Part shown: piece after piece, positions 4,359-8,337 of the stretch
How positions within the stretch are numbered: the stretch's first letter is position 1
Layout: the number at the start of each line of letters is the position of its first letter
Virus record (IMG/VR): IMGVR_UViG_3300044568_003939
Direction: 5' to 3' (one strand)
DNA from: a virus
DNA length: 64,000 bases
Made by a program: the position numbers and the translations under genes
Notes under the pieces: model-generated
What the model was told of the DNA's origin: nothing
Databases searched by the model: none
Seen by the model: only the letters and a program-made list of their open reading frames with translations

Positions 4359-4596
4359 AGAAGGCTCTTTTGATTTTGGTTTTACTGCGGTTCATGAACT
4401 TGAACTTGAAAGTGTTCAGGCTGCAGCAAATAGCAATGCGGTTGCTCAAAACAAATTAGAGAAAATGTATAAGGCAATACTCCCACTGTTGGATAATCTT
4501 AAAAAGAATCCAGAAAAGGACTATATTTTTTGGCCACAACGAATGGACAAAATAGAAAAGTTTGAGCGGATGATTGAAGAGATATACAACGGCTAG
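4348..4596 (+). CDS. Conserved hypothetical phage protein
   Basis: FDFGFTAV...ILPLLDNLKKNPEKDYIFWP; ATG at 4348 preferred over TTG 4342. Confidence 0.7.
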   Translation: MIFEEGSFDFGFTAVHELELESVQAAANSNAVAQNKLEKMYKAILPLLDNLKKNPEKDYIFWPQRMDKIEKFERMIEEIYNG

Positions 4597-4892
4597 CCTG
4601 CATATACATTGCTACTTGCTACGCATAGAGAAGGAGTAAAAGTACCAGTGTGACTATCAAGTGCATCACCATTACAATGTGCAGGGCGTCCATTTATGAA
4701 TACACTCCCACTGCCAACTATAGCAATTTCTCCGCATAGTGTAGTGTCACCAATTGCTACAGCTTGATAGCCATCAATGTATACCGTATTTCCATTACCG
4801 GCATATGGTGAATTGATATGAGGAGTACCGCCACTAAGCGGCGTATGCGTTGTAGCATAATCAGCACCAACTCTTGCAATACTCTTTCCCAT
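4593..4892 (-). CDS. PAAR spike-tip protein (gp5.4-like)
   Basis: IARVGA, VYIDG..AVAIGD, GSGSVFINGRPAH..GD; His/Cys metal ligands. Confidence 0.85.
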   Translation of the reverse strand: MGKSIARVGADYATTHTPLSGGTPHINSPYAGNGNTVYIDGYQAVAIGDTTLCGEIAIVGSGSVFINGRPAHCNGDALDSHTGTFTPSLCVASSNVYAG

Positions 4893-4894
4893 AA

Positions 4895-6907
4895 TTATAT
4901 GCTAGCAAATCCCATAGCACTGCCAGTCATTATAGGGTCATATGAACTGTTGCTGTTGTTTACTGAACTTTGAGTTGTATTGTTTGTATTGCCACCGTAA
5001 TTATTAACAATCACAGGAGACACTGATATGTTGTTGCTGCTATTCATCAGTTCGGCACCGGTAGTATTGCTTATAGGAGATACCGTTGGCATTTTATATT
5101 TCCATCCTGATGACCTGTAATCATCCCATGACTCATAGCCAGCTTCTTTAGCTTTAAGTGATTTTTGATCTTCCGTTAACGAATCAGCAGCTGGCATGGT
5201 ACTGCTGCTAGTTGCTTCGCCTTCCTTTGCTTTTGCTTTAAGACCAGCATATTCGTAGATACTGTCTGGTATTGCTTTTGCAACCCAAGTCATTGGATTG
5301 AGTACGCCGGCAGCTGCCGGATCTGGCAATACATCTCGCAATACACTTTTTGCAAACCCTTCGGCAAGATTACCAGCACCGCTTACAGCATTGTTAATGG
5401 CCTCGCCCATCTTAGCCGTCAATTCGGTTATAAGAGTTGGAATATTCATTACCCAATCAATGAGGCCGTCTATTGCTTTGCCAATCGCATCAAATACAAA
5501 CGCTAAAGCTTTATTGAGGGTATCGGTAAAAGAAAAATTATCCAATGCAACTGCAAGATCAAACGCTCCAAACATAGTAGCAATCCATGATACTGCTCCT
5601 TTAAGAGTATCCAATATACCACCAACAAGAGTTGCCCATATGCCAGCTAGCCCAAAATTTTCAAAGGCTTTAGAGAATTTTTCAAATGAAAAGATTGATT
5701 TAAACCAGTCAAATGCGTATATGACTGTATCAAAGATTGCATCTACGCCATCCTTAAGAAGCTGTGAGAATGAGAAACTGTCAAGTAATTTTGAAAAATT
5801 TTGAAAGCCTAATTTGTTAGCAACCCATGATACTATATCCTTTGCGAGGTCTGCTATACCACCAACAAGACCAATTAACAATCCACTGATAGCGCCTTTA
5901 ACAGCACCTAGTACGCCACCTTGTTTGTAGCCTTCGATAGCACCCATTACCGTTTCATATAGTGCGGTAATAAAAACTAACGGCTTAGCTAATACTTTCA
6001 ATACACCAAATAATGCTGGTAAAATGCGAGCTATTCCTTTACCTATCGATACACCAGTTTTAAAGCCTGTTACAAATGCTCTAAGTATACCACCTAAACT
6101 TGTAAAAAATTTCGCAATATTTGGAAACATTTTAGCTAGGCGGCCGCCTATAGTCAGGCCTTCATCGGCCGCTCCAAACAATGGACGAATCATATCGCCT
6201 ACAGCGCGCACTGCACCTGTGAATTTGCCCCAGGCTTCGGTTATTTTGGTAATTGTATTTGTTACATATTTGGCGATTGCAGATTCTCTTACAAAAGCAA
6301 CAGCACTTTCTCCAACTAGTTTTATGGTATTGAAAAAAGAAGTTAGTGCAGCGCGTATAGGGTTGAACGCCTTGGCTATAGCTGTTCCGAGTTTAGAAAT
6401 GCCTAAACTTATTTTTTGATATATTGCAGTGTCTTTAATTAGAGCGCTAAACATCGCAGCCGTTTCGGTAACAAATCCTACAACAGTACCGCCAATTAAA
6501 GCTGCAGCAAAAGCAAGAATGCCACCTAAACCAGATGGTGCCTCGCCTGCGCGTGGTGACGGGCGTCGTCTCTCAGTGTCAGGCGGTGGCTCGTTGCGTG
6601 CACGCAATGCGGCAAGAAGATCTCGACGATTTTCTTCTTGCTGCATATCATTGCTGGTAAAGAATTCCAACAACTCTTTATTGCTGCGACTGATATCAGA
6701 TATCAGTCGGCGCATACTAGTGACAACCGCTAACAGCTGACCACCATTATCAACGCGTTCGCCTTCGGCTTGTGAGTTGATTAAAAGACCGCGAGTAACC
6801 AATTGGTTGGTATTGTCTATCGCGTCCATAATAACATCGCCTGAGAAGTTTAAACTTTTCAGTTGTGCGATTACTTCGACTAATTGACTACTTTCTGTAT
6901 TGGCCAT
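4895..6907 (-). CDS. Baseplate hub / tape measure protein (gp29-like)
   Basis: 670-aa helical Ala/Gly/hydrophobic-rich protein with N/S-rich tail; lies after gp26/gp51. Confidence 0.7.
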   Translation of the reverse strand: MANTESSQLVEVIAQLKSLNFSGDVIMDAIDNTNQLVTRGLLINSQAEGERVDNGGQLLAVVTSMRRLISDISRSNKELLEFFTSNDMQQEENRRDLLAALRARNEPPPDTERRRPSPRAGEAPSGLGGILAFAAALIGGTVVGFVTETAAMFSALIKDTAIYQKISLGISKLGTAIAKAFNPIRAALTSFFNTIKLVGESAVAFVRESAIAKYVTNTITKITEAWGKFTGAVRAVGDMIRPLFGAADEGLTIGGRLAKMFPNIAKFFTSLGGILRAFVTGFKTGVSIGKGIARILPALFGVLKVLAKPLVFITALYETVMGAIEGYKQGGVLGAVKGAISGLLIGLVGGIADLAKDIVSWVANKLGFQNFSKLLDSFSFSQLLKDGVDAIFDTVIYAFDWFKSIFSFEKFSKAFENFGLAGIWATLVGGILDTLKGAVSWIATMFGAFDLAVALDNFSFTDTLNKALAFVFDAIGKAIDGLIDWVMNIPTLITELTAKMGEAINNAVSGAGNLAEGFAKSVLRDVLPDPAAAGVLNPMTWVAKAIPDSIYEYAGLKAKAKEGEATSSSTMPAADSLTEDQKSLKAKEAGYESWDDYRSSGWKYKMPTVSPISNTTGAELMNSSNNISVSPVIVNNYGGNTNNTTQSSVNNSNSSYDPIMTGSAMGFASI

Positions 6908-6916
6908 TGTGATGGT

Positions 6917-7099
6917 TTAGTTGCTATTTTTACGTTTTTGTTCTTCTTCTTTAAGGTGTGAAACAAGCAGTGAAATGTATATTTCCCTCTCCCATGGTAT
7001 CATCATATCCAATTCGCTTAATGAGTATTTGTGGTGCTGCATCAATGCAAAGTTAGTTTGGAAATAATTTACTAATGATTCATGTGAGAGGGCTAATCG
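6917..7099 (-). CDS. gp51: gp51-like baseplate hub assembly domain; probable -1 frameshift extension of gp26 (absent from the ORF track)
   Basis: Manual translation RLALSHESLVNYFQTNFALMQHHKYSLSELDMMIPWEREIYISLLVSHLKEEEQKRKNSN*; first ATG only at 7042. Confidence 0.8.
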   Translation of the reverse strand, partial: RLALSHESLVNYFQTNFALMQHHKYSLSELDMMIPWEREIYISLLVSHLKEEEQKRKNSN

Positions 7100-7800
7100 A
7101 AAAAAGCTTTAGTGCCTACCAGTTCCAACGAGTTGTCATGGCCGCAGCCTTTGCATTTGAATTGAACAGTTTGTTTGAGCGCAGGAACTGCTGCAATGAA
7201 CGCTTCAATTTTTTGCATCTGTGAGCGGTTAAGACTGTTGATGAAAACGATCAATTCAGCTTTTGATGAATTCTCAGCTGGATATACCTTCTCAGCATCA
7301 AAGATACTTTCAATACTTGCAATAACAACTTCATTGATAAGATCACCTTGTGTCTTTTTGTCATCAGTCAATCCGCTCATATCTTTAACTCGAATGTAAC
7401 GCATATTGACGCCAACAGTATCAGTAATCATAATTGTCTTTGATACCGAGTCATCAAATTTTACTGCTATTTCATCAAGGTTAATTTCAACTGGGTTTGG
7501 AGCTTCGCACGAGCTGCACTTGACGTTGACGTTGCTAATCTCTCCAACGCTTTTGCTGCGCAACTTAAGGAAAACATATTCAAGGTCAAATGATGTTAAT
7601 GCATTAACATCAACTTTTTCAAATGTGCATGCACGAATAATATCTTTCATTGCGCCTAACATCTCGCGTGAATCTTGTGACTCTTGAGCCATCAGCAAGA
7701 TCTTTTCTTCTTTTACGAGAAATGGGCGATATTCAATAGCCTTCTTTGTGGAAGGAATTTCAACGGTATACTTTGGGGATTCTAGGATTGGTAATGCCAT
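7093..7800 (-). CDS. gp26: Baseplate hub assembly chaperone
   Basis: MALP...YRPFLVKEEKILL, FDLEYVFLKLRSKSVGE, two CxxC pairs, ends AFFD. Confidence 0.88.
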   Translation of the reverse strand: MALPILESPKYTVEIPSTKKAIEYRPFLVKEEKILLMAQESQDSREMLGAMKDIIRACTFEKVDVNALTSFDLEYVFLKLRSKSVGEISNVNVKCSSCEAPNPVEINLDEIAVKFDDSVSKTIMITDTVGVNMRYIRVKDMSGLTDDKKTQGDLINEVVIASIESIFDAEKVYPAENSSKAELIVFINSLNRSQMQKIEAFIAAVPALKQTVQFKCKGCGHDNSLELVGTKAFFD

Positions 7801-7821: not shown

Positions 7822-8337
7822 TTAAGTTAGTTTTCGTGATGACCACGTGTTGTATGTAAACACTATTGTTAATTTTTGAACGCTATTTTCTGAAGAGTTG
7901 TCTAGTTCGATAGAATTAACTCCAACAGGCCATGCATATGGAAGTGTGACTTCATATATTGGTTTGTCTGTTTCATCCAACTGTTGTATTATAACTGTTG
8001 TTGCAAATTTTTTAGTATACTCAACCAAGTATGATACTGGATTTATTATCTTAACAAGCCATTGGTCAAAAAGGTTTTTAACATAATAGTCATTTGTTAA
8101 ATAAAACACACAAGTAACATCCTCATCGCTATAACCAGTTGGTACTTTGTTTTCATTACGCCAAACAGAAAAGTCCGTTGTAAGTATTTGTCTCCCTGGC
8201 AGCGTACAGCTTTCGCACAATAGGTTAAGATCTTTTCCATCATCAATTGGATTGGAAATGATAATATTAAAGCGATTACCACGTGATAAACCGGATCGTT
8301 TTATAATGGTACTTTGTAAGTCTTGTATAGATCCCAT
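7822..8337 (-). CDS. Tail-tube-like protein (gp19/gp54-like tube initiator)
   Basis: LSRGNRF, CESCTLPGR, FDQW, QQLD, AWPVGV..IELD. Confidence 0.75.
   Translation of the reverse strand: MGSIQDLQSTIIKRSGLSRGNRFNIIISNPIDDGKDLNLLCESCTLPGRQILTTDFSVWRNENKVPTGYSDEDVTCVFYLTNDYYVKNLFDQWLVKIINPVSYLVEYTKKFATTVIIQQLDETDKPIYEVTLPYAWPVGVNSIELDNSSENSVQKLTIVFTYNTWSSRKLT

Follow-up and report, generated by a model that had tools for sequence, protein, structure and literature searches.

A -1 frameshift in the tail assembly chaperone genes of long-tailed phages was reportedly described as conserved by Xu, Hendrix and Duda in 2004. In E. coli, the -1 frameshift of dnaX takes place on the heptamer A AAA AAG, accompanied by an upstream Shine-Dalgarno-like element and a downstream hairpin. 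A 2016 review describes the G-T frameshift as a conserved feature of long-tailed phages 'except T4' (PMC5009743). The original prediction for the locus studied here stated, for its part, that such a frameshift is conserved in these phages and was not described for T4 itself. The T4 literature counts gp26 and gp51 among the chaperones of hub assembly and notes that the particle contains no gp51; for decades, it has not been clear what the two proteins do in the making of the hub (PMC3004832). Using a full-text literature search, we found no report of a gp26/gp51 frameshift.

The window, by which we mean the whole stretch of DNA that was analyzed, comprises 64,000 nucleotides of the IMG/VR virus record IMGVR_UViG_3300044568_003939, a T4-like marine phage that is uncultured, and the genes considered here lie on its minus strand. 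The gp26-like gene (7093..7800, 235 aa) is a full-length member of PF12322 (E 2.4e-57; 194.6 bits for a gathering threshold of 24.5) and matched PHROG 150 (E 1.3e-63). PF12322 (T4_baseplate) is the Pfam family to which the T4 baseplate-hub proteins gp26 and gp51 belong. Directly upstream, we found a gp19-family tail tube or tube-initiator gene (7822..8337), which matched PHROG 3629 and 45 (tail tube) and scored below the threshold for PF06841. Downstream, a tape-measure-like gene of 670 aa (4895..6907) starts with an ATG at 6907, and the operon ends with a PAAR-repeat spike-tip gene (4593..4892; PF05488 E 8.4e-13). As for lambda G/GT, the gene may sit after tube genes and directly before a tape measure gene, the identity of the latter coming from a weak PHROG hit. 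The original prediction had noted that a gp51-like reading frame ends 9 nt before a tape-measure-like gene. The 9-nt gap was found as described; the tape-measure identity is weak, with an E value of 1.1e-5 for PHROG 5448 (tape-measure) and no significant similarity of the 670-aa protein to T4 gp29 (E 0.16). Since the homology to T4 gp29 is weak, the 'tape measure' label is given from position, size and the weak PHROG hit. In 45 of 75 relatives, a long ORF begins at most 30 nt past the gp51-like (gp51C) segment. An extra ORF of 110-140 aa is present between this segment and the tape-measure-like gene in about 19 of 75 loci, including HTVC008M, phiM12 and P10VF, and is not present in the window. 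Just upstream of the gp26 ATG, we also noticed TATAAATT (7813-7806, minus strand), which is near the T4 late-promoter consensus TATAAATA; a promoter and terminator scan gave nothing informative.

The 3' end of the gp26-like gene reads GCT (7107-7105) TTT (7104-7102) TTC (7101-7099) GAT (7098-7096) TAG (7095-7093) on the minus strand. The slippery heptamer T TTT TTC (7099..7105) is in X XXY YYZ phase, two codons ahead of the gp26 stop, the zero-frame TAG (7093..7095) lying one codon past it. The -1 frame is closed by a TAA at 7111-7109, is open from 7108 and stops at 6919-6917, which leaves an extension of 60 codons and a stop after the slip (6917..7099). Its whole translation, 63 residues beginning SFFRLALSHE, matched PHROG 634 ('baseplate hub assembly catalyst', gp51) with an E value of 3.5e-28 from residue 2, and aligned as well with the gp26 family profile, PHROG 150, at its C-terminal end (positions 230-281, last 50 positions). 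The correctly phased heptamer two codons before the stop and the 60-codon -1 frame with gp51-like sequence had both been announced by the original prediction; the sequence and the ORF confirm the former, the translation and the PHROG 634 match the latter. The window shares with lambda gpG/gpGT a heptamer of X XXY YYZ phase close to the 3' end of the chaperone gene and an extension without its own start.

We consider a programmed -1 ribosomal frameshift on U UUU UUC, leading to products of 235 aa and 294 aa, to be very probable. For most ribosomes on gp26, translation would end at the TAG (7095-7093) with the 235-aa protein. On U UUU UUC, a minority would slip while the P site (UUU) and the A site (UUC) each hold a tRNA-Phe. 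The two tRNAs would re-pair on UUU UUU, one base back, and these ribosomes would then translate 60 codons in the -1 frame to give a predicted gp26-gp51C fusion of 294 aa (gp26 residues 1-234 followed by 60). The short and long products would be the counterparts of lambda gpG/gpGT and of T4 gp26/gp51. The common chaperone-fold N-domain would serve to coat the product of the next gene, the tape-measure-like protein; on the rare long form, the helical 60-residue tail would recruit a hub or tube component, and the finished virion would be expected without either form. These binding partners, tape-measure-like, tube or hub proteins, are proposed because of the lambda analogy (PMC5009743) and the T4 literature (PMC3004832).

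To evaluate the conservation of this arrangement across relatives, as the original prediction had proposed for NNT TTT TTY with a gp51-like -1 frame, we gathered 94 loci: 7 deposited phages (S-CAM1, S-T4, HTVC008M, the KVP40-like phi-pp2, phiM12, S-CRM01 and P10VF), phiAS5, 80 IMG/VR loci and 6 further loci. They cover Kyanoviridae, pelagimyophages, KVP40-like and Chrysonvirus Straboviridae, Emdodecavirus, Pootjesviridae and uncultured marine phages, and 77 representatives with less than 80% amino-acid identity were retained for counts by codon. We observed an in-phase T TTT TTN with a gp51-like segment in the -1 frame of gp26 in 94/94 loci (88/88, then 6 more), as the original prediction had anticipated. 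In the relatives, the gp26 stop is located 0-8 codons past the heptamer, mostly 1. A chance arrangement or a sequencing error would have to be considered here, since homopolymers are error-prone and a few database proteins (P0044, P0081) resemble frame-error fusions. However, 94 independent loci show this frame relation, among them finished genomes of cultured phages, so that such an origin is extremely improbable. A related arrangement was seen in the Salmonella phage Det7 (Ackermannviridae; locus L089:2270-2465), in which a gp26-like gene ends GAG ATT TTC ATT TAA with a gp51C-like segment in the -1 frame; it has no canonical heptamer, and the one event compatible with it would be the slip of a single tRNA on T TTC.

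The codons at the site were compared with those elsewhere in the same loci. The codon ahead of the Phe pair encodes S, D, N, A, G or H and ends in T in all 77 representatives, compared to 25% of the codons before Phe elsewhere in these loci. Likewise, the first Phe codon of the pair is TTT in 77/77, compared to 59 of the 139 other Phe-Phe pairs (42%), and only 13 of these 139 pairs form the heptamer. Over the other 46,142 codons of these loci, an in-phase T TTT TTY was encountered only 13 times. The runs are thus avoided elsewhere in the loci and kept only at the slip site. The wobble positions adjoining the site are saturated, at about 1.4-1.9 bits. Because two synonymous positions are invariant T while such runs are avoided elsewhere, amino-acid conservation is insufficient as the cause.

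This last point bears on the reading of the segment as a separate small gene, in which gp51C would be made alone (42-60 aa), either from TTG 7045 or ATG 7042 or by ribosomes that reinitiate once they have terminated at the gp26 stop, while the T-run would just encode Phe-Phe. Such a reading is the one adopted in all the database records examined, as the original prediction had supposed when it spoke of a usual annotation as two genes: we found no joined CDS or long product in these records, a truncated or arbitrary 'gp51' ORF being called instead. A conserved Phe-Phe pair even in T4 gp26 is also consistent with it, whereas an invariant T at two synonymous positions, with runs avoided elsewhere, argues against it. 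The start codons were examined as well. In the window, TTG 7045 and ATG 7042 are the earliest start codons of the -1 frame, 18-19 codons past the junction, the residues from the heptamer to the first in-frame start being LALSHESLVNYFQTNFALMQHHK. Starting at 7045 or 7042 would lose these 18-19 residues, which are conserved and codon-periodic. Codon-position entropy over -1 codons 0-17 was 1.07/0.78/1.55, and because it is periodic, the codons ahead of the usual ATG are coding in the -1 frame. Together with the PHROG 634 match from residue 2, this substantiates the claim that family-like residues precede the first ATG (7042). By contrast, little weight can be given to the remark that no ribosome-binding site is visible at 7042, since in the window gp26 (start at 7800) and the 670-aa gene (start at 6907) also begin without a Shine-Dalgarno; a separate gene without one would be nothing unusual there.

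In 64 of the 77 representatives, the conserved segment runs for at least 9 codons before its first ATG is reached (18-19 codons in 43; codon 32 in 8). In 58 of the 77, no ATG, GTG or TTG is seen within 4 codons of the junction, and an upstream start in the -1 frame is found in only 4, as a by-product of a Cys codon. These counts are difficult to reconcile with independent initiation in most lineages. On the other side, an ATG is present within 4 codons of the junction in 13/77 representatives, likewise in phi-pp2, phiM12, S-CRM01 and P10VF, and it overlaps the gp26 stop in a minority of lineages, where a free small gp51 could therefore also be made. With the fusion of the segment in T4, presented below, also standing against it, we consider a separate small gene as the source of gp51C in the window to be unlikely.

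The same T-run could act at the level of transcription, with the RNA polymerase stuttering on T6-T7 and adding one U to some mRNAs, which would give the same fusion. The site is indeed a homopolymer run lengthened by the conserved wobble T, and seven T are present in 28/77 representatives. However, the run ends at six T followed by C in 47/77, the commonest form, although TTT is synonymous. Known runs for useful polymerase slippage are usually of 9 or more bases. The exact X XXY YYZ phase was always kept, which would also speak against transcriptional slippage, although the Phe-Phe motif sets the phase anyway. Polymerase stuttering is therefore judged very unlikely, and ribosomal frameshifting is the reading that we retain in the following.

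We then compared the two products expected from ribosomal slippage with gp26 and gp51 of T4. T4 gp26 (208 aa) matched PF12322 with an E value of 8.8e-64. T4 gp51 (249 aa) begins with a complete PF12322 domain (residues 1-201, E 3.9e-52) and continues into a tail, and the gp26 profile aligned to its residues 13-186 with a probability of 93%. Residues 200-244 of T4 gp51 aligned with residues 3-48 of the window -1 segment (BLASTP E 1e-6, 30% identity), and hhalign with a profile of 68 -1 segments gave the same alignment to the T4 gp51 tail (E 2.8e-5). These alignments show T4 gp51 to be an in-frame fusion of a gp26-like domain and a tail homologous to the -1 segment, the very product expected if the one gene of the window were read with a -1 slip. 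Given this gp26-like domain and homologous tail, T4 gp26 and gp51 are paralogues, a short and a long form encoded by two genes. In T4, these forms are divergently transcribed paralogous genes, whereas in the window one gene is predicted for both; cyanophage records possess one PF12322 copy apiece. In addition, T4 gene 51 is in an operon with the tape-measure gene 29. T4 gp26 keeps the Phe-Phe pair, but as the non-slippery TTC TTT, which represents a natural control since T4 has a separate gene 51. Taken together, we regard it as probable that T4 genes 26 and 51 derive from one ancestral frameshifting gene of the lambda G/GT kind, that slippage was kept in most of the T4 superfamily, and that in T-even phages the gene was duplicated and its long form hard-wired as gene 51.

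We also looked for the long form among available proteins. A profile search of 1.84 billion proteins returned 2,124 matches, nearly all of them gene calls of 49-99 aa starting from any available NTG, and one full-length in-frame gp26-gp51C fusion, P0136 (270 aa, junction SEWF-VICLAH). All six closest retrievable relatives of P0136 use the frameshift arrangement, and P0136 may reflect a second hard-wiring of the long form or, alternatively, an error of assembly. The -1 segment is present in at least 565 deposited phage genomes, which, with the long product missing from every record examined, points to an annotation error.

To characterize the fold of the common N-terminal part, we modelled the window gp26 using AlphaFold2 (pLDDT 94.4, pTM 0.87) and compared this model to 48,161 chains with VIA-align. 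The top three matches were all on residues 1-95: 3fgx (Z 8.1; 85 aligned, rmsd 3.9), 3klu (YqbN; Z 6.8) and 2ob9 (HK97 tail assembly chaperone; Z 6.7). These are the three solved phage tail assembly chaperones (PMC9603447). The N-domain fold of the window gp26 thus matches HK97 gp13, YqbN and Rbstp2171. Even if the Z values are moderate, the match is persuasive because ranks 1-3 are exactly the chaperone family and most of each target is covered, and the model points to a tail-assembly-chaperone-like fold for the N-terminal ~95 residues of gp26. Other searches gave no such match: Foldseek of the gp26 model against the PDB returned nothing with E <0.2, a sequence search of the PDB returned nothing relevant, Pfam on the gp26 N-domain showed no chaperone family at E values up to 10, and an NCBIfam search gave no match. 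Unlike members of the Pfam chaperone families, the window protein belongs to PF12322 and has no sequence match to them. It also differs from gpG, as it has 235 aa, about twice the size, and continues into a further C-terminal domain that carries CxxC pairs. In a model of the natural fused relative P0136, the 60-residue tail is predicted to be helical, with a pLDDT of about 90; this model, made from a mixed alignment, is poor overall (pLDDT 65.8, pTM 0.36) and its helical tail alone is usable. The proposal that gp26 and a gp26-gp51 fusion are the G/GT equivalents of this lineage is supported by the conservation, by the make-up of T4 gp51 and by this chaperone fold.

We next considered elements that could stimulate the slip. 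No conserved downstream hairpin was detected in pseudoknot-free 60-nt folds of each sequence or in a consensus fold over 75 loci, which was empty. The 60 nt downstream in the window fold at -3.7 kcal/mol (z 0.65), and the mean z was -0.47 compared to -0.17 for the control. Upstream, many relatives (within L001-L088) have a Shine-Dalgarno-like GAGG(G) 9-10 nt from the heptamer (region 9-14 nt), and the Glu four codons ahead of the heptamer is encoded by GAG in 27/39 compared to a background of 24% (P 3e-9). In the window, neither GGAG nor GAGG was found within 20 nt upstream of the heptamer, where GTA GGC is present (7119-7114). The site therefore resembles dnaX in its tandem-slippage heptamer and, in many relatives, in the GAGG located 9-10 nt upstream, and the window differs from dnaX in having neither a Shine-Dalgarno-like element nor a downstream hairpin. 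Because the window is without the GAGG present in many relatives, the slip efficiency may be low, as in lambda.

The mechanism is of a known kind, and the new part is the PF12322 family and the duplication in T4. These results indicate that the T4 superfamily also has the tail-chaperone frameshift and that T4 itself swapped it for two genes. If this is true, the only stated exception to the universal tail-chaperone frameshift would be removed, and a testable function would be suggested for T4 gp26 and gp51. Many natural frameshift sites of the form U UUU UUY would also be added, from hosts in which Shine-Dalgarno usage is weak.

Two further observations were made on these proteins. The window gp26 has two CxxC pairs, CSSC and CKGC (7516-7507 and 7150-7141, minus strand), which suggests a possible zinc ribbon; the cysteines of these pairs are lost in several cyanophage gp26 homologues, e.g. 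those of S-CAM1 and S-T4. Finally, the Acinetobacter phage Octan (MT409116) has a gp51 homologue of full length, which its record calls a 'tape measure protein assembly chaperone'. No other record encountered names the proposed function, and the chaperone idea is thus already present at the annotation level.
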